Positions 4,980 to 52,726 of a stretch of DNA of 64,000 bases are shown here, piece by piece. The notes below the pieces were generated by a model. It did not search any database. It was not told the DNA's origin and saw only the letters and a program-made list of their open reading frames with translations. Every line of letters begins with the position of its first letter. Position 1 is the first letter of the stretch. A program made the position numbers and the translations under genes. Source of the DNA: an uncultured Acidobacteriota bacterium (lineage in GTDB: Bacteria; Actinomycetota; Acidimicrobiia; Spongiisociales; ZC4RG35); assembly GCA_963711895.1 (NCBI GenBank), contig CAVQFU010000007.1:93406-157405 (forward strand), given 5' to 3'.

Positions 4980-6434
4980 CTAGCCGGCCGGCTCCAGATT
5001 GCGGTTGATGCGGAACAGATTGTCGGGGTCGTACTCCGCTTTGATCCTGCGCAATCGCTCGTAGTTGCCTCGATATGCGCTCTCGATGCGGGTGACGTCA
5101 TCGTCAGTCGTCTGGAAGTTGATGTAGTTGCCTCCGGTCGAGAACGGTTTGATGCGATCCCACGAGGAGCGTGCCCACTGTTGATGGGTGTCACCGTTGG
5201 GATCGGTCGAGGGCCATGCCGCTGCGGCTCCGACCACGAACGCGGCGTCCCGGTTCCCCACCGCCCCGTCGTCTTCGGCGTGGTCGTTCACCCCGCCCGC
5301 GATGTGAAAGGTGATGACTTGTGACATGGGGGACTCGATCTCGGCAGCATTGGCTCGAACGGACTCGAGGTAACCCTCACTCAGTTCCGGGATGAACTCG
5401 GTCTTCCAGTAGTAGTTGGCTCCCTTCGGCTGGGTCGCGTTGAGCATCGACTGTTGCTCGACATAGGTCTTGGGCATGATGAGATCAGCGATTGGCCGGC
5501 CGAAACCCTTGATCGGGGCCAGGTCCTGCTCTGCTGCATCCGGATCACCGCTGTGACAGGCGATCATCGCCACCATCGGCTTGCCGTGCCAGATCTCAGG
5601 GATGAACGGGGCCGGAGGGGCGAGACGCATCGTGGCGACGAGGGTCATCTCTCGCGGTGCGGAGGCAGTCAGGTCGCGATACAAGCCGAGCACGTCTTCG
5701 GCGTGATCCTCGGCCGGCCATGCGATCAGACCGGCCATGATCCCGGGTCCTACTTCGTGCAGTCGGTAGGTGAACTCGGTGACCACTCCGAAGTTCCCGC
5801 CGCCGCCGCGGATAGCCCAGAACAAATCAGGGTCCGATTCCCGGCTCGTCGTCCGCACCTGGCCATCGGCGGTGACGATCTCGGCCTCGACCAGATCGTC
5901 GACGGTGAGTCCAAAACGGCGGGACAGATACCCGAACCCGCCACCGAGCGTCAGGCCGGCCACCCCGGTCTCCGACACGAAACCCAGAGTGGTGGCCAGC
6001 CCAAGCTCCTGAGTTGCCCGGTCCACATCGCCGAGAAGACAGCCGGCGCCGACATGGACCAGCCGCTGGTCGGGATCGAGCCGGACCTGGCGCATCCGTG
6101 ACATGTCCAGCGTCAAACCTCCGTCGGCCAGCGCCAGACCCGAGATGTTGTGCCCGCCCCCCTTGATCGAGATCAGCAGTCTCTGCTCCCGGGCCAGATT
6201 GACGGCGAAGATCACCTCTGCGGCGTTCTCCGGCTGGATGACCAGTGCAGGCTCTTTGTCGATCAGCCCGTTCCAGATCAACGTGGCGTCGTCGAAGCCC
6301 GGATCACCGGGTCGGAGCCGCCCCGTGGCGGGGATCATCTCGAGGAGGGATGGATCCAGCTCGACCTCGCCGCCATCGAGAGTTCGAAGGTTCAATTTCT
6401 CAGAAGACATGGGCATGGGCCTTTCCGCTGGCAA
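4980..6434 (-). CDS. FAD-linked oxidase, berberine-bridge-enzyme-like family
   Basis: FAD_binding_4 motif SIKGGGHNISGLAL, C-terminal BBE motif YERLRRIKAEYDPDNLFRINRN. Confidence 0.8.
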   Translation of the reverse strand: MPAERPMPMSSEKLNLRTLDGGEVELDPSLLEMIPATGRLRPGDPGFDDATLIWNGLIDKEPALVIQPENAAEVIFAVNLAREQRLLISIKGGGHNISGLALADGGLTLDMSRMRQVRLDPDQRLVHVGAGCLLGDVDRATQELGLATTLGFVSETGVAGLTLGGGFGYLSRRFGLTVDDLVEAEIVTADGQVRTTSRESDPDLFWAIRGGGGNFGVVTEFTYRLHEVGPGIMAGLIAWPAEDHAEDVLGLYRDLTASAPREMTLVATMRLAPPAPFIPEIWHGKPMVAMIACHSGDPDAAEQDLAPIKGFGRPIADLIMPKTYVEQQSMLNATQPKGANYYWKTEFIPELSEGYLESVRANAAEIESPMSQVITFHIAGGVNDHAEDDGAVGNRDAAFVVGAAAAWPSTDPNGDTHQQWARSSWDRIKPFSTGGNYINFQTTDDDVTRIESAYRGNYERLRRIKAEYDPDNLFRINRNLEPAG

Positions 6435-6501
6435 CGGTACCGATGGCCGTTTGTGGCCGCATCGACAGTGGTCAGCCTGATCCCCACGTTTTGGCGCGCC
6501 G

Positions 6502-7818
6502 ATGTCGCCCTATAGACCGACATTGCCGCGCCAGAATGATCTGGTGACAACCGCGCCCAACTTCGCAACGACTCCATATGAGGAGCGGAGAATCGAGGAG
6601 CTGAGGCGCTGGAAGCGGCGAGCAAACCTCTTCCTGCTCGGGGCATTTGTCGTTTTCCTCATCAGTCATTTCTTCGGCAGCGAGGGTGGGGTCAATGGCT
6701 TCATCCGCGCCGCATCCGAGGCGGCGCTGATAGGTGGCATCGCCGATTGGTTCGCAGTCACGGCGCTTTTCCGGCACCCACTCGGCATCCCGATCCCGCA
6801 CACCGCGCTCATACCGAAGAGCAAGGACGAGATCGGACGTGGTCTGGCCGAGTTCGTCCAGCAGAACTTCCTCGATCCGGCCAATCTCGGAGAATGGCTG
6901 ACGAACGCAGACATCGCCGGCCGATTGGCTCAATGGCTGGACTCACCCGACCACGCGACTCTCGCCGCGCGTCGGACCATCGAGACCGGATCCACGATCG
7001 CCCAGTCCCTGGACGATGAGCGTGTCGCTACCGTCATCACCCAGACCTCTCTCGACTGGCTGCGACAGACTCCGGTCACCCCCATCATCTCCCTTGTGGC
7101 GGACGCCTGGCTAAAGGGTGGTCGCACCCGTCAATCGGTGGAGGCCACGCTCCGAGGGCTCGACGTGGTCATCGTCGACAACCTCCCATACTTCAGGGAG
7201 AGCTTCGCCGAGGCCTCCCCGTGGTGGATGCCGGCATGGGCCGGCGAGCTCGTCTTCGAGCGGATCATCGCATCCTTCCGAATCCTGGTGGACGACGTGG
7301 CGTCCGACCCATCGCACCCGATCCGCGCCGACATCGAGATGATGATGTCGAAGATCGCCGACGATCTCCGCAACTCAGCGGATCTGGCGGATCGCATCGA
7401 GGAATCGAAGCTGCACATCCTCGACTCGCCGGAATTAGCCACCGCCCTCCAGACGCAGTGGCAGGTCGTGCAGGAGAGTCTGGGCCGTGCCGCCTCCCGG
7501 CCCGGCTCGGATCTGGAGAAGCGCCTTGCGGAGTTGATCCAGTGGTGGGCGCACCGCGTGCTCGAGGACGAAGCACTCCGGACGCGTATCAACACGTGGA
7601 TAGCCGATGCCGCCGAGCGTCTCGCACATCAGTGGGATGAAGAGGTCATCGGGATGATCGAGACAACTGTGGCTGGCTGGGACGCCACCGAGATCTCCCA
7701 CCGTCTCGAGCTTCAACTGGGCCGAGATCTCCAATTCGTGCGGATCAACGGGACCGTGGTCGGGGCCCTGGTCGGGGTCGCCATCCATGCGTTGCTGGTG
7801 CTGACCGGCAAGGTGTGA
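6502..7818 (+). CDS. DUF445 family membrane protein (YjiN-like)
   Basis: N-terminal TM then AALIGGIADWFAVTALFRHPLGIPIPHTALIPK, characteristic of DUF445; about 440 aa. Confidence 0.7.
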   Translation: MSPYRPTLPRQNDLVTTAPNFATTPYEERRIEELRRWKRRANLFLLGAFVVFLISHFFGSEGGVNGFIRAASEAALIGGIADWFAVTALFRHPLGIPIPHTALIPKSKDEIGRGLAEFVQQNFLDPANLGEWLTNADIAGRLAQWLDSPDHATLAARRTIETGSTIAQSLDDERVATVITQTSLDWLRQTPVTPIISLVADAWLKGGRTRQSVEATLRGLDVVIVDNLPYFRESFAEASPWWMPAWAGELVFERIIASFRILVDDVASDPSHPIRADIEMMMSKIADDLRNSADLADRIEESKLHILDSPELATALQTQWQVVQESLGRAASRPGSDLEKRLAELIQWWAHRVLEDEALRTRINTWIADAAERLAHQWDEEVIGMIETTVAGWDATEISHRLELQLGRDLQFVRINGTVVGALVGVAIHALLVLTGKV

Positions 7819-12627: not shown

Positions 12628-13656
12628 GTGTTCACCCCGATCCGCACCGAGCGGCTGCTCATCCGCCCCTTCGAGCTAGACGACCTCGCCGAATACCAGG
12701 CCCGACGCAGCGATCCGGACGTGGCCCGCTATCAGGACTGGGAGCTCCCGTATCCCATGGAACGCGCAGAGAAGGTCGTTTCCGCGCAGGCGGCAATGGA
12801 CGGGCCCGAGAACGACAAGTGGTGGATGGCTGTGGTGTGCGATCCCGATACCGGCGAGGTCTTCGGAGACGTTGGGGCGGAGCTTTCATGGAAGGGTCGT
12901 TCCGCCGAAGTTGGCTACACCTTTGCCAAGGAGCATTGGGGGAAGGGGTATGCGGCAGAGGCATTGCATGCGTTGGTCCGATACCTGTTCGAGGAGCTCG
13001 CCGTGACCAGGGCGTTCGGCATGCTCCATCCGGAAAACCCGGCCTCGGCCATGGTCCTGGAGCGGACGGGATTCCTCTTCGAGGGCGAGACCAAGTCGTC
13101 GTTCTGGGTGGGCGACGAGCTGTCGGACGACTGGATCTACGGGATGACGAGGCCGGATTGGGAGACCTGGCGTGACCGTCCCCGGCATCCGCCTGACTCG
13201 GTGCACCTGATCGAGGTGACCGCCGAGAACGAAGCGACCGTTGCGGGTCTCCGCACCCACCGGACGCAGGAGGACTTCGTGGCCCCGATCCTGCGATCGT
13301 TCGCCGACGCCCTGTTCCCCGAGATGGTCGACGGGGCGCCGGTCGAGCCGTGGATGCGGGCCGTGATCGCCGACGACGTGATTGTTGGGTTCGTGATGCT
13401 GGCCCTGAGCACCGAGCACCATCCGGAGCCGTTTCTCTGGCGTCTCTTGATCGACCGTCTCCACCAGCGGCGTGGGATCGGGGGCAGGATCCTGGAGCTC
13501 GTCGAGGCCGAGTGCCTGGCGATGGGCGACGAGAGCCTTCTCACCAGTTGGGGCGAGGGCAAGGGCTCACCCCGGCCCTTCTACCTGGCTCACGGCTTCG
13601 TCCCCACCGGCAGGGTGGTCGACGAAGAAACCGAAGGTCGCAAGCGGCTGTCGTGA
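12628..13656 (+). CDS. GNAT family N-acetyltransferase (two GNAT-like halves)
   Basis: Acetyltransferase fold motifs (WGKGYAAEAL; QRRGIGGRILE) in both halves. Confidence 0.7.
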   Translation: MFTPIRTERLLIRPFELDDLAEYQARRSDPDVARYQDWELPYPMERAEKVVSAQAAMDGPENDKWWMAVVCDPDTGEVFGDVGAELSWKGRSAEVGYTFAKEHWGKGYAAEALHALVRYLFEELAVTRAFGMLHPENPASAMVLERTGFLFEGETKSSFWVGDELSDDWIYGMTRPDWETWRDRPRHPPDSVHLIEVTAENEATVAGLRTHRTQEDFVAPILRSFADALFPEMVDGAPVEPWMRAVIADDVIVGFVMLALSTEHHPEPFLWRLLIDRLHQRRGIGGRILELVEAECLAMGDESLLTSWGEGKGSPRPFYLAHGFVPTGRVVDEETEGRKRLS

Positions 13657-13671
13657 AGGGTCGGGTACAGC

Positions 13672-13790
13672 GAACCTCAGGTTCCACGGCCCGTATATGA
13701 AACGAACTGCCTCAGGCTCGACGCAGAGCGTCGGACCCTCGGGAGGCTGAGGCAGTTCGGCCCGCATATGAAACGCAGAACCTGAGGTTC
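13672..13790. promoter_or_regulatory. 119-bp dyad element with internal 17-bp direct repeats, 18 bp upstream of the ligD-pol start
   Basis: GAACCTCAGGTTC (13672-13684) and its reverse complement GAACCTGAGGTTC (13778-13790). AACTGCCTCAGG / CCTGAGGCAGTT inner inverted repeats. GGCCCGTATATGAAACG (13688) and GGCCCGCATATGAAACG (13759) as direct repeats 71 bp apart. Central CGACGC...GCGTCG mini-palindrome. Confidence 0.4.
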
Positions 13791-13808
13791 GACCTAGGTT
13801 TGGTGTGA

Positions 13809-14714
13809 ATGGAGGTCAGCAATCCCGACCGTGTGGTCTTCCCCGATGATGGGATCACCAAGGGCGAAGTCGTCGACTATTACGTACGCGTCGCCGATCG
13901 CATGCTCCCCTTCGTCGAGGGCCGACTCCTCTCGGTCGAGCGATTCCCCCGCGGCATCGGGGGTCAGGGCTTCATGCAGAAGAACGTCCCCGACCATGCC
14001 CCGGCGGAGCTGATCGGGCGTCACGAGGTGCCCAAAGAGGGCGGAGGGACCACTGTCTACCCGATGGTCGACTCTGCGGAGGGGATCGCCTTCTTCGCCA
14101 ATCTGGGGGTGATCACCTTTCACGTGCCACCGGTACGAGCGAACGACGAGGAGCACCCGGACTGGGTGATCTGGGACCTGGACCCGCCTGCCGACCGAGT
14201 GGAGCTGGTACGCGAGGCGGCGCGCGAGATGCGCGATGTCCTCAAGTCATTCGGCATCGAGACGGTCCTGATGACCTCCGGTTCGAAGGGTTACCACCTG
14301 CGAGCCACGTTGGAGCCGACCACCGACGTCGACGACGTCGCCCTGGTGGCGAGAGGCACGGCCGCCCTTGGCGCTGCCGCCAACGACGGTCTCCTGACCC
14401 TGGCCTTTCGCAAAGCCGACCGCGGTGATCGGGTCTTCGTCGACTGGATGCGGAACACCTCGCGGTCTACGTCGGTGGTTCCCTGGTCGCTTCGACCGAA
14501 GACCGGAGCACCGGTCGCCACACCGATCGCGTGGCAGGAGTTGGGCGACATCGAGCCGGACGGGGTCAGGCTCAGCAATGTCCAGGATCGATCGCGGAAG
14601 CGACCCTGGTCGAAGCTCGAGTCGATCGACTTGACCCCAACCGTGGAGAAGGTGCGCAGCGCCCTCGACGATGCAGCGATCGAGTTGCCGCCCTTCGACC
14701 GATTCCGGTCCTGA
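13809..14714 (+). CDS. NHEJ DNA polymerase, LigD polymerase/primase (Prim-Pol) domain protein
   Basis: VIWDLDPP and TSGSKGYHL motifs of LigD Pol domain, VFVDWMRN. Stop is 3 nt before the ligase start. Confidence 0.8.
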   Translation: MEVSNPDRVVFPDDGITKGEVVDYYVRVADRMLPFVEGRLLSVERFPRGIGGQGFMQKNVPDHAPAELIGRHEVPKEGGGTTVYPMVDSAEGIAFFANLGVITFHVPPVRANDEEHPDWVIWDLDPPADRVELVREAAREMRDVLKSFGIETVLMTSGSKGYHLRATLEPTTDVDDVALVARGTAALGAAANDGLLTLAFRKADRGDRVFVDWMRNTSRSTSVVPWSLRPKTGAPVATPIAWQELGDIEPDGVRLSNVQDRSRKRPWSKLESIDLTPTVEKVRSALDDAAIELPPFDRFRS

Positions 14715-14717
14715 CCC

Positions 14718-16226
14718 GTGCTCCTGGCCGATCTCGTCGCTGTCTCCGCCTCGGTCTCCGCGACGAGGGCTCGTTCCGAGAAGATCGCGTTGCTCGCCGC
14801 GATGCTTTGCCGGCTCGCCCCAGATGAAGCGGCACCCGCAGTTTCCTTTTTGAGCGGAAAGCCACGACAAGACCGGCTGGGAGTGGGATGGACGACGGTC
14901 TACGCCATCGAAGCCGCCGCTGCGAAGGAACCGTCCCTGGAGATAATCGAAGTCGACGCAACTCTGGAGGACCTGGCAGGCGTGTCCGGACCAGGCTCCA
15001 AGATGACGCGGGAGATGCTCCTCTCCGGGATGTTCGGCCGGGCAACGGAGGCCGAGCAGCGCTTCCTGCGCGATCTCATAGTGCGCAATCTTCGGCAAGG
15101 AGCGTTGGAAGGGGTGATGGCGGACGCCGTCGCAGTTGCCCTGGGAGTGACGCCTGATCGCGTGCGTCGGGCGGCCATGCTGGAGGGCGATCTGGTCACC
15201 GTGTCCTCACGGGCCCTTTCGGAGGGTCCCGACGCCTTGGGGACATCGACGCTTGGGTTGTTCACCCCGGTGCAGCCGATGCTGGCCAAGACCGCCGCCA
15301 CCGCCGGCGAGGCGGTGACCGGGCTGGGTCGCGCCTTCGTTGAGTGGAAGCTCGACGGCGTCCGTATACAGGTGCATCGTGAAGGGACTCGAGTGGCGGT
15401 GTTCACCCGGAACCTGCGAGACATCACCAGCGGAGTTCCCGAGGTAGTCGCGTCGGTGCAGAAATACCCGGCCACGTCGTTCATCCTCGACGGAGAGGCC
15501 CTGTTGTTTGGTCCCTCAGGCCCGGAGCAGTTTCAGGACTCGATGAGCAGGTTCGGAACCGAGGCGTCAGATCAGGCCCCGCCCCTGCGCGCGTTCTATT
15601 TCGACTGCCTCCATCTCGACGGTGTAGATCTGATCGACTTATCGCTTGCCGAGCGCCGGGCCGCGCTGGTGGGCGCGGTACCCGGAGAATCTCTCGTCGG
15701 AGCGGTCCTCACCGATGACCCGGAAGAGGCCGACCGCTTCTTCGAGGATGCGGTAGCCGCCGGGTATGAGGGCGTCGTGGTCAAGGATCCGGACCAGCCT
15801 TATGAGGCCGGTCGACGCGGATCGGGCTGGCTCAAAGTCAAACCGACTCATACCCTCGACCTTCTGGTCCTGGCCGCCGAGTGGGGATCCGGGCGCCGGG
15901 AGGGCTGGCTATCCAACCTGCATCTCGGTGCCCGTGACCAAGAGGGCGGGTACGTCATGCTGGGCAAGACGTTCAAGGGGCTTACCGACGAGATGCTGGG
16001 GTGGCAGACCGAGCGATTTCTCGAAATCGAAGATCACCGCAGCCGGAACACCGTGTTTCTGAAGCCCAGGATCGTCTATGAGATCGCCTTTGACGGCGTG
16101 CAGCGGAGCACGCGTTATCCGGGCGGTGTGGCCCTCCGTTTTGCCCGGGTCAAGCGATATCGCGAAGACAAAGGGCCAGAGGACGCCGACACCATCGAGA
16201 CGGTGCGCAGTTTCGCTCGCAGCTAG
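14718..16226 (+). CDS. ATP-dependent DNA ligase (LigD ligase-domain / LigC-like)
   Basis: Adenylation motif I EWKLDGVRIQVH (KxDG), OB-fold region. GTG start immediately after the Pol gene stop. Confidence 0.85.
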   Translation: MLLADLVAVSASVSATRARSEKIALLAAMLCRLAPDEAAPAVSFLSGKPRQDRLGVGWTTVYAIEAAAAKEPSLEIIEVDATLEDLAGVSGPGSKMTREMLLSGMFGRATEAEQRFLRDLIVRNLRQGALEGVMADAVAVALGVTPDRVRRAAMLEGDLVTVSSRALSEGPDALGTSTLGLFTPVQPMLAKTAATAGEAVTGLGRAFVEWKLDGVRIQVHREGTRVAVFTRNLRDITSGVPEVVASVQKYPATSFILDGEALLFGPSGPEQFQDSMSRFGTEASDQAPPLRAFYFDCLHLDGVDLIDLSLAERRAALVGAVPGESLVGAVLTDDPEEADRFFEDAVAAGYEGVVVKDPDQPYEAGRRGSGWLKVKPTHTLDLLVLAAEWGSGRREGWLSNLHLGARDQEGGYVMLGKTFKGLTDEMLGWQTERFLEIEDHRSRNTVFLKPRIVYEIAFDGVQRSTRYPGGVALRFARVKRYREDKGPEDADTIETVRSFARS

Positions 16227-25118: not shown

Positions 25119-26527
25119 TGCATTCTCGGCAGAGCCGGTTGTTTGTGAAGAGGCCCGGCGATGCCGGGCCTCTTCACTTGAAGCTGCTTCTCGTGCCACT
25201 GCTCATCCTTGTCCCGGTGTTGGCCGCCGCGGCTCATGGCCTGGAATTCGAGGTGGTGGTCGAGGCGGTGAGTCGATCGGAGAGCCCCGGAGCGATCTCC
25301 TACGGGATCGTTCTCACCTTCGCCGATGGGCATGAGGTCACCGATGCGGCGGTGACTGTGACTGCTCTAGGGGAGGGTGGCGGGCCCGCGGTGGAGACGA
25401 CGGCCCCGATGACCACGCCAGGTGTCTATATCGCCGATCTCACCCTTGCCGAAGGCTCCTGGCAGATGAGCATCGACATCGTGACCGGCGACTCGGAGGG
25501 GACCATCGAGTTCACAGAGGTTGTCAGCGGCACTCCAATGGCCCAGCCCGTGGTGCGGGTCGATACCGCAGATCCTGGGCGGGAGGGCGATGTCGTTGCG
25601 CAATCCTCCGTGTTCCAGCCTTCGGCCGCTCCGGCGGATGGCCCGGTGACCGATATCGATCTGAGAGTGGAGGCTCTGGTGCGCGATGCGGTTGCGCCCC
25701 TGCTCATCGAGTACGGAGTCGCAACCGGGGTCACTGACGCGATCGTGTCGATTTCAGCCCTGTCGGAGGGCTCACAGGTGCTCGGCCCTCTGCCTCTTAC
25801 CCAGTCGGCCGACGGCATCTTCGAGGGTGTCCTCGAGTATCCCGATGGTGGAGTCTGGGAGGTCAGCGTCGGTGTGGAAGGAACTGGCGGGGGTACTGCC
25901 ACGTTCGCCGAGAACTTGCCCTGGCCCCACTACACCACCGAGGCCGGGTCGCCCAAGATCAAGGTCGACACTGCCGATCCGTCCCTCGAAGGAACATTGA
26001 TCGACCTGAGCGAGTCACCGATCTTCGGGGAGGCGGGACCGGCGGCCACCGTTCCGGCCGCGACGACGGTTCCCCATGGCGGCGAGGTGGTGGTGTCCAT
26101 CCCATCCTCCGACTCCGAGATCGGATTCCAGGTGATGCTTCGCTGGACTCATCTGGTCGGGATTGGCGCCTGGGCGGCAGGGATCGCCGCCATCGGACTC
26201 GGTCGCACGCAGGGGATGTGGGCGGTGTTGGCGATTACGGGCATGGTGGCAACCATCGCCACCGGCATCGCCCTCGCCTTGTGGGGAGCGCCAACCGATT
26301 TCCCCGGTATCTTCGACTGGTCGGAGTTGGGCGGCAGGCCCTATGGAGCCGCTTATCAGTCGGCGTACCTGATCAAGATGGCATTTGTCCTGACAGCAGT
26401 CATCGCCACATCGATGCTCATAGCCAAGAGCGGGCGTGGTCGTCTTGCCGTAGCGGCAGGTGGCATGTTGGGGGCCCTGGCCGCCGTCGTGGTGATGGCC
26501 CAGCTTCATGTCTTCGCCCATTTATGA
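25118..26527 (+). CDS. Putative copper-handling membrane protein: extracellular CopC/YtkA-like repeats plus C-terminal 4-TM CopD-like domain
   Basis: Signal peptide ending AAAHG (CopC-like mature His). Repeated beta-sandwich units (VVRVDTADPGREG / KIKVDTADPSLEG). C-terminal about 150 aa with four predicted TM helices. Confidence 0.45.
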   Translation: MHSRQSRLFVKRPGDAGPLHLKLLLVPLLILVPVLAAAAHGLEFEVVVEAVSRSESPGAISYGIVLTFADGHEVTDAAVTVTALGEGGGPAVETTAPMTTPGVYIADLTLAEGSWQMSIDIVTGDSEGTIEFTEVVSGTPMAQPVVRVDTADPGREGDVVAQSSVFQPSAAPADGPVTDIDLRVEALVRDAVAPLLIEYGVATGVTDAIVSISALSEGSQVLGPLPLTQSADGIFEGVLEYPDGGVWEVSVGVEGTGGGTATFAENLPWPHYTTEAGSPKIKVDTADPSLEGTLIDLSESPIFGEAGPAATVPAATTVPHGGEVVVSIPSSDSEIGFQVMLRWTHLVGIGAWAAGIAAIGLGRTQGMWAVLAITGMVATIATGIALALWGAPTDFPGIFDWSELGGRPYGAAYQSAYLIKMAFVLTAVIATSMLIAKSGRGRLAVAAGGMLGALAAVVVMAQLHVFAHL

Positions 26528-52696: not shown

Positions 52697-52726
52697 GAAG
52701 ACCCCCACCCTCGGGTGGGGGTCTTC
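52697..52726 (+). terminator. Rho-independent terminator hairpin (GAAGACCCCCACCC-TCG-GGTGGGGGTCTTC) followed by TCTT
   Basis: Perfect 13-bp GC-rich stem, 3-nt loop, U-rich tail on + strand; lies between convergent gene ends. Confidence 0.5.

Follow-up and report, generated by a model that had tools for sequence, protein, structure and literature searches.

A 121-bp palindromic element lies at positions 13671-13791 of the 64-kb stretch of contig CAVQFU010000007.1 analysed here (the window), between a gene for a double-GNAT acetyltransferase and the gene for the LigD primase-polymerase (Prim-Pol) domain, ligD-pol. In our view it is probably, if far from certainly, one copy of an undescribed low-copy family of mosaic palindromic repeats, which resembles repetitive extragenic palindromes and bacterial interspersed mosaic elements (REP/BIME) or miniature inverted-repeat transposable elements (MITEs) and is probably recognised by a protein. 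It is neither a LexA site nor a ligD-specific operator. The initial annotation had hesitated between protein operator sites and a MITE-like insertion; with copies at no fewer than five unrelated loci and a variable presence at ligD, the repeat or MITE-like option stands, and an operator dedicated to ligD does not.

The element is built of an outer box (a), 3 nt, a 17-mer, an inner box (b), a variable centre, a second inner box (b'), a second 17-mer, 2 nt and a second outer box (a'). Its parts are as follows:

13671-13684, + strand: outer left box a, CGAACCTCAGGTTC, nearly palindromic and in perfect pairing with 13778-13791
13672-13684 and 13778-13790: outer 13-bp boxes GAACCTCAGGTTC and GAACCTGAGGTTC, exact reverse complements
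13688-13704, + strand: left 17-mer, GGCCCGTATATGAAACG, one side of the internal loop
13704-13715 and 13747-13758: arms of the inner inverted repeat, GAACTGCCTCAG and CTGAGGCAGTTC
13705-13719, + strand: inner left box b, AACTGCCTCAGGCTC, pairing with 13743-13757
13719-13742, + strand: variable centre, holding a small hairpin and unalignable between copies
13719-13733: central hairpin, CGACGC-AGA-GCGTCG
13743-13757, + strand: inner right box b', GAGGCTGAGGCAGTT
13759-13775, + strand: right 17-mer, GGCCCGCATATGAAACG, a direct copy 71 bp downstream of the left one, at about -50 to -34 from the ligD start
13778-13791, + strand: outer right box a', GAACCTGAGGTTCG

The boxes, 17-mers, inner arms and central hairpin described in the initial annotation were each recovered in place, as was the distance of 18 bp from the end of the element to the ligD-pol ATG (13809), and the pairing of the outer boxes gains one more base, at 13671/13791. 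The 17-mer consensus GGCCCG[T/C]ATATGAAACG occurs at 13688 and 13759, at an interval of 71 bp; a search tolerating up to 3 mismatches gave these 2 matches, where shuffles lead one to expect 0.23. The direct repeat is in reality a 36-nt unit made of the 17-mer and a box, with 81% identity between its two copies, and the four boxes are variants of a single near-palindrome, GAAC(n)CTSAG(n)GTTC. Since every box comes close to being its own reverse complement, the same unit is a tandem direct repeat of 71 bp and, at the same time, a long hairpin or cruciform, with stems a:a' and b:b' and the two 17-mers opposed as a 17x17 internal loop. A reading of this arrangement as a CRISPR-like mini-array (36-nt repeat, 35-nt spacing) was rejected: the repeats are just 81% identical, the 'spacer' is complementary to the repeats, and there is no array or cas context. 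Small open reading frames (ORFs) starting from an ATG inside the 17-mer (MKRT..., MKRRT*) were also set aside as by-products of conserved DNA, their peptides being unconserved beyond the motif and the ATG missing from one relative (L044).

The element is the longest inverted repeat of the window (I1, 49-nt arms). RNA folding, one of the checks suggested in the initial annotation, gave a strong hairpin: the intergenic RNA folds at -72.9 kcal/mol, against -52.4 +/- 4.1 kcal/mol for dinucleotide shuffles (z = -5.0), and none of 200 shuffles matches this stability. The fold is equally stable on the + and - strands and thus gives no strand preference. Within the element, scanning and inspection found no acceptable sigma-70 -35/-10 pair and no acceptable motif of the PafBC RecA-NDp type or of the extracytoplasmic function (ECF) type; Rfam 15 has no match overlapping it, even at E <= 10. 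The + strand scan of the element gave no terminator-like site, and its tail, GACCUAGGUUUGG, has no U-tract. The argument of the initial annotation that the direct repeats speak against a simple terminator hairpin was reasonable: one copy of the family lies between divergent genes and no copy has a U-tract. The ordinary terminator-type hairpins of the window (25145-25177 and 52697-52726) have perfect GC-rich stems of 14-15 bp, loops of 2-3 nt and weak T-rich tails, and the ligD element is quite unlike them.

A repeat family is supported by copies at loci unrelated to ligD. Species-representative genomes (185,579) were scanned with a strict 20-mer, CGGCCCGNANATGAAACGMA, and a hidden Markov model (HMM) of the unit run over the 37 hits identified four real copies. 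A metagenome scan with the right end gave three hits, among which L044 is the orthologous ligD locus. Away from ligD, copies lie at these loci:

L041: composite, between a minus-strand APH-family kinase gene and a padR-nfeD operon (divergent genes)
L043: composite, between pafA (Pup ligase) and pafB (WYL and WCX domains)
L020: composite in opposite orientation, with a nei/fpg glycosylase gene on one side and imuA'-imuB on the other
L042: two monomers that flank an abiEi-DUF559 gene, both on a contig of 1.8 kb

The element is thus present at five or more non-orthologous loci, two of them on one contig (L042). The initial annotation had named occurrence at many unrelated genomic locations, together with ligD transcription that starts downstream of the element and is indifferent to its deletion, as what would speak against a ligD-specific element; the first of these, occurrence at unrelated loci, is what is found in related genomes. 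In the L041 composite, which stands 10 bp upstream of a TTGACT-16-TATTAT promoter, the outer boxes and the left 17-mer region are identical to those of the window; the outer left box is likewise the same in L044, and the left 17-mer motif recurs in L041, L020, L043 and L025. The terminal inverted repeats of 14 bp are perfect in the window, L041 and L044, and 13 of 14 positions are complementary in L043. Both the unit HMM and a covariance model trained on five composites (R1) find all of these copies again, with R1 scores of 110-131 bits for the composites. Gene contexts across the family are tandem, convergent and divergent, occupation of orthologous sites is sporadic, and four of the six loci found lie at gene 3' ends. 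As far as these scans show, the family is confined to a narrow clade of Acidimicrobiia.

Searches elsewhere brought no further copies. Ten matches on viral contigs were discarded as chance, since they fall inside coding DNA of microviruses and other phages; blastn of the element against plasmids gave nothing relevant, a protein database search with the translated element had no hits, and a literature search gave nothing on the element sequences or on REP elements in Acidimicrobiia. A 21-nt match to the 17-mer region (CGGCCCGGATATGAAACGCAG), without flanking boxes, occurs in a metagenome-assembled genome (MAG) of Acidimicrobiales (L006:4638-4657), between comF-like and histidine-kinase genes; it may be a remnant or chance.

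At the pafA|pafB site the closest relatives, with PafB identity of 77-80%, have unrelated repeats in place of the element. This spacer is wholly different among close relatives and seems to be a hot spot of repeat turnover: L059 (2290-2500) and L060 carry direct repeats GGCCGACTTT(T)GACCGCG, L061 (2453-2500) to L064 carry tandem TAGGT-type repeats directly before the start codon, and L065 (238-460) carries a palindromic repeat of G/C runs with GAGAAACGAAC.

The orthologous GNAT|ligD site tells how a resident copy changes between relatives. In the window the flanking features are:

12628-13656, + strand: double-GNAT acetyltransferase gene, with a stop codon 14 nt upstream of the element
13795-13800, + strand: inferred -10 hexamer TAGGTT, 8 nt before the ATG, with no Shine-Dalgarno sequence
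13809-14714, + strand: LigD primase-polymerase (Prim-Pol) domain gene
14718-16226, + strand: ATP-dependent DNA ligase gene, with N-terminal, adenylation and C-terminal domains

LigD-pol homologues place the source organism in Acidimicrobiia; an exact look-up of the window protein itself returned no record. Synteny is kept in metagenomic relatives, with genes for an F420H2-dependent quinone reductase family protein, DUF4287, GNAT, ligD-pol and ligase in order. At this locus, with LigD-pol amino-acid identity to the window given as a percentage, we find:

Window (reference): composite, 121 bp
L044 (91%): composite, 134 bp
L001 (91%): 50-bp form, a single stem with one 17-mer in the loop
L025 (93% over 131 codons): 50-bp form
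L048 (89%): 50-bp form
L046 and L047 (89% and 88%): element absent, the intergenic DNA being just 27-29 bp
L045 (89%): contig beginning exactly at the right edge of the element
L002 and L066 (81% and 80%): single box fragments
L003 and L066 (84% and 80%): pspC gene inserted between GNAT and ligD

The comparative alignment of ligD upstream regions proposed in the initial annotation thus reveals an element that is variably present, as composite, 50-bp form, remnant or not at all. Because relatives at 80-81% LigD-pol identity hold single-box fragments there, a copy must have been long resident at this site. Subtracting exactly the repeat interval of 71 bp from the composite leaves the 50-bp form (121 - 71 = 50), which is consistent with the product expected of slippage or recombination between the direct 17-mers. 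An operator dedicated to ligD does not agree with these loci, in which relatives with 88-89% identical LigD-pol lack the element yet keep the -10 and the operon.

Several observations on these contigs stand apart. Two independent metagenome contigs end exactly at an outer box (L045:1-18 and L042:1-3), which points to the element, or to its variation between strains, as a likely cause of broken assemblies. The PspC-domain gene (65 aa; L003:2715-2912 and L066:2691-2888) takes over the conserved -10 position. In L001 (10910-12419), the closest relative, gene calling splits the ligase gene after ligD-pol into two ORFs of 416 and 89 aa, by frameshift or assembly error, and L003 (10034-11512) has a second LigD-type gene (LigD_N and ligase domains) about 6 kb downstream, absent at the equivalent position of the window. 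The ligD-pol/ligase pair of the window has no adjacent Ku gene: a Ku gene lies between the BBE-type oxidase and DUF445 genes in L002 (1811-2755), and there is none between them in the window (4980-7818) or in L001. The MAG records of L020 and L025 are labelled 'uncultured Acidobacteriota', a label or binning that looks wrong; L025 is syntenic with the Acidimicrobiia window and its ligD-pol is 88% identical in nucleotides.

Conservation within the element is strongly uneven. Boxes and 17-mer are 86-98% conserved at the ligD locus, well above four-fold degenerate ligD sites, where identity between the window and its relatives is 62-69%, a sign of selection or homogenisation. Over the 44 nt that run from the right 17-mer up to and including the -10, identity is 98% in L044, 95% in L025, 89% in L001 and 86% in L048; the 14 nt that separate the GNAT stop from the left box are unalignable among relatives. 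Between non-orthologous copies the outer boxes remain identical or nearly so, the inner boxes are 59-76% identical, yet mostly still paired, and the centre is free in sequence and length. From the conservation of boxes and 17-mer we infer a sequence-specific protein partner. Pairing is also largely maintained: with the five composites aligned, 90% of cells are paired and 4 double changes fall in the inner helix, and in the outer stem of L001 and L048 a G-C pair is swapped to C-G.

The 17-mers follow the scheme [X][NATA][Y], in which X is GGCCCG or GTTTCA and Y is TGAAAC or CGGGCC, and each alternative half-site is the reverse complement of the half-site facing it across the loop. Multi-base half-site swaps lengthen the hairpin in L044, L020, L041 and L043, and quasi-palindrome correction by template switching is known to yield such swaps. 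The forms of the element fit the changes that long palindromes are known to undergo, namely loss of the repeat interval, complementarity between loop strands and full loss. The relevant hairpin may be RNA, single-stranded DNA or a cruciform.

How would such a unit act at ligD? The hexamer TAGGTT is, judging from its position and conservation, the putative -10 of a leaderless ligD-pol/ligase transcript, and Actinobacteria often make leaderless mRNAs with a TANNNT -10. In L001, L002, L003, L044-L048 and L025 the first start codon is preceded at 6-8 nt by TAG[G/T/C]TT, and these loci have no Shine-Dalgarno sequence; L066 has TATGTT at the same position. As this -10-like hexamer is kept at ligD loci with and without the element, the ligD promoter is independent of the element. 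The hairpin begins 14 nt past the GNAT stop and ends 3-4 nt before the inferred -10, and the right 17-mer with its box occupies -50 to -19 relative to the ligD start. Most likely, the hairpin would stop or stabilise transcripts reading through from GNAT and thereby insulate ligD, which would rely on a promoter of its own; the DNA of that promoter from -50 to -19 would be supplied by the right 17-mer and box, which may modulate it. The conserved motifs would be bound either by the enzyme that propagates the family or, by analogy with REP/BIME, by a nucleoid-type protein.

Several results weigh against a mobile repeat family acting in this way. The strict 20-mer had 37 hits in the 185,579 genomes, with about 35 expected by chance, and occurs once per genome in three to four related genomes. 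Copy number is low: the window has one copy, and a pattern search, blastn and a covariance model with filters off all failed to find a second (136 bits for this copy, 17 bits for the runner-up, a generic hairpin). Moreover, R1 applied to 184 kb of related loci gave nothing beyond the copies already ascertained. No target-site duplication is visible at any copy, inspection of the flanks of seven copies having found no shared direct repeat of 2 bp or more, and the mobility of the family is deduced from its distribution. Ten plus five window proteins were scanned and none is a transposase; no search of the genomes for REP-associated tyrosine transposases (RAYTs) was made. A role as terminator or insulator has to do without a U-tract, and such a role cannot hold at L041, where both neighbours diverge from the element. 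Covariation with n=5 is not significant, since 39-78 of 500 shuffles reach the observed values; duplex energy, a weak covariation test, differs slightly between own (-19.9 kcal/mol) and cross-copy (-17.1 kcal/mol) arms. Finally, strong conservation at a locus of long residence fits a host-selected binding site equally well.

The main alternative is an operator array for a transcription factor with a dispersed, possibly DNA-damage-responsive regulon, in which a dimeric protein would sit on the palindromic boxes and/or the GTTTCA-N4-TGAAAC-type 17-mer beside leaderless promoters. We regard it as possible but doubtful. It would account for the conservation of sequence, beyond pairing alone, at boxes and 17-mers across non-orthologous loci, well above four-fold sites, and some 17-mers are perfect 16-bp palindromes. 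The element lies directly upstream of an inferred leaderless promoter at three loci, and two of the five copies found without bias adjoin DNA-damage genes (pafA|pafB and nei|imuA'-imuB); with ligD as the starting case, p is about 0.03 if 6% of intergenic regions adjoin such genes, a proportion that is our own estimate. However, the distance from the promoter-proximal box to the -10 is 3, 15, 27 or 34 bp, with no consistent helical phasing; the copy at imuA' has the opposite orientation, and one copy has convergent genes on its two sides. The absence of the element from pafA|pafB of the closest relatives, and from ligD in L046 and L047 with an intact -10, is not what a regulon would lead one to expect. 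Symmetrical changes of the half-sites in L001 and L048 also count against it, and the one-base deletion inside a box of L048 would disrupt a dimer site but merely bulge a hairpin.

Alternatively, the element could be a structured RNA, either a cis-acting intercistronic processing or stability hairpin (for instance a substrate of RNase III type whose internal loop is symmetric) or an independent small RNA. The great stability of the hairpin agrees with this, as does an RNA-like pattern in which the basal stem and loop are conserved in sequence, the upper stem in structure only, and the apical region is free. Three copies lie between same-strand genes, and on the + strand mismatches of the G.U (G.T) type outnumber those of the A.C type by 8 to 4 in a manual count, a bias that is not significant. 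Such an RNA is nevertheless unlikely, given the lack of an Rfam match, the equal stability of the two strands and the non-significant covariation. Furthermore, the copies have no conserved promoter upstream and no consistent orientation to the transcription around them (L020), and one of them stands between divergent genes (L041). If TAGGTT is indeed the -10, the element is moreover outside the ligD mRNA.

L042 offers a lead to how the repeats spread. The contig is organised as follows:

3-51: outer box, 17-mer and inner box
52-71: 20-bp palindrome CCGGATACCTGGATATCCGG
99-1007: abiEi-DUF559 gene, encoding a winged helix-turn-helix (wHTH) domain and a Vsr-like nuclease
about 1040-1092: inner box, 17-mer and outer box

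The two monomers are inverted, with outer boxes facing outwards, and this single 1.8-kb contig ends exactly at an outer box. On this one short contig we thus see the architecture of the composite with a gene replacing the short centre. The geometry of gene-flanking modules parallels that of RAYT/REP pairs and of insertion sequence (IS)/MITE pairs. The 121-bp elements might then be non-autonomous derivatives of a selfish cassette of about 1.1 kb with the AbiEi-wHTH-DUF559 (Vsr-like PD-(D/E)xK) nuclease as its sole gene, an idea that we hold to be improbable; no homologue of this protein was found in the window, in the related loci examined, on plasmids or by exact look-up. If it were true, mobile or homing elements would gain a new class driven by a nuclease, the abundant AbiEi-DUF559 genes of Actinobacteria would have a function, and the bias towards DNA-repair neighbours (ligD, imuA', pafBC) might reflect insertion site or a selective link. 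As a single case, L042 is a testable lead.

The remaining alternative, that the outer boxes are LexA (Cheo-type) SOS operators giving damage-inducible repression of the ligD operon, can be practically dismissed. The initial annotation had raised it with caution, the GAAC...GTTC half-sites resembling the actinobacterial SOS box, and the window holds five GAAC-N5-GTTC sequences against 0.9 expected, two of which are these boxes. Yet both boxes have N5 where LexA requires N4. The clade's own SOS box is canonical: L020 (4485-4500) carries a perfect LexA box TCGAACATATGTTCGA (TCGAAC-N4-GTTCGA), overlapping the inferred -10 of the leaderless imuA'-imuB cassette downstream of nei/fpg, 22 bp from the composite copy of the element. 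The half-sites are broken in L001 (GAACCTCAGCTTC and AAGCTGAGGTTC) and L048 (GAAGTCAGCTTC and GAAGCTGAGTTTC) while the arms stay complementary, and the boxes also occur at loci not expected as SOS targets. Matches to CGAAC-N4-GTTCG in the window are at chance level (5 against 3.7 expected), with none in the GNAT|ligD intergenic region.

Taken as a repeat family, the element removes a tempting wrong inference, that of LexA or dedicated-operator control of ligD and non-homologous end joining in the source organism, and documents such a family in Acidimicrobiia, a class for which nearly all knowledge comes from MAGs. Palindrome evolution is clearly displayed in this family, one form being in keeping with slippage deletion and the multi-base changes with template-switch correction, and the conservation of its boxes and 17-mer above neutral sites points to a sequence-specific binding protein. 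In practical terms, the element appears to break metagenome assemblies and alters the promoter-proximal DNA of DNA-repair genes between close strains.

With the actinobacterial LexA/Cheo box the element shares the letters of the GAAC and GTTC half-sites; it differs by its N5 spacing and its half-sites unconserved in orthologues, in a clade that has a canonical N4 box. Intrinsic terminators, and those terminator repeats of actinobacteria that are conserved in sequence, such as the TRIT motif of M. tuberculosis, have in common with it a GC-rich hairpin past a stop codon, here at 14 nt, and a location mostly at gene 3' ends, whereas the element lacks a U-tract, has a 121-nt bipartite stem with a 17x17 loop, and one of its copies lies between divergent genes.

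Likeness to MITEs such as the Neisseria Correia element, ERIC and RUP is greater. The total size (50-134 bp), terminal inverted repeats on a short non-coding unit, and long and short isoforms are shared, as are dispersed copies beside promoters and gene ends and presence/absence polymorphism at orthologous sites. On L042 the end modules enclose a gene, an arrangement that an autonomous parent element would show. In contrast to MITEs, the element has no target-site duplication, its internal motif is direct and not inverted, and the ligD copy is old rather than a recent insertion. No recognisable transposase accompanies it, the gene flanked in L042 coding for an AbiEi wHTH and a DUF559 Vsr-like nuclease domain.

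REP/BIME, including RIP/RIB (REP-integration host factor (IHF) site-REP) and REPIN doublets, share with the element near-palindromic units in alternating orientation with a conserved non-palindromic motif between them: here four box variants and two 17-mers, in monomeric and dimeric forms. Both are intergenic in every gene topology, can form long hairpins, exist in modular variants (monomer, dimer, truncated) and are conserved in sequence across loci, which implies a trans-acting protein. They differ in that the copies of the element in a genome apparently number in units, not in tens to hundreds (a single copy in the 64 kb of the window, and a single hit of the strict pattern in each related genome), that it has neither a GTAG head nor a RAYT gene among the window proteins scanned, and that its two direct 17-mers face each other as an internal loop. 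Their hosts differ too, REP/BIME being those of enterobacteria and pseudomonads and the element belonging to Acidimicrobiia. Without strict membership of either class, the element is closest in kind to REP/BIME, especially to REP-motif-REP mosaics, and to MITEs with long and short isoforms.

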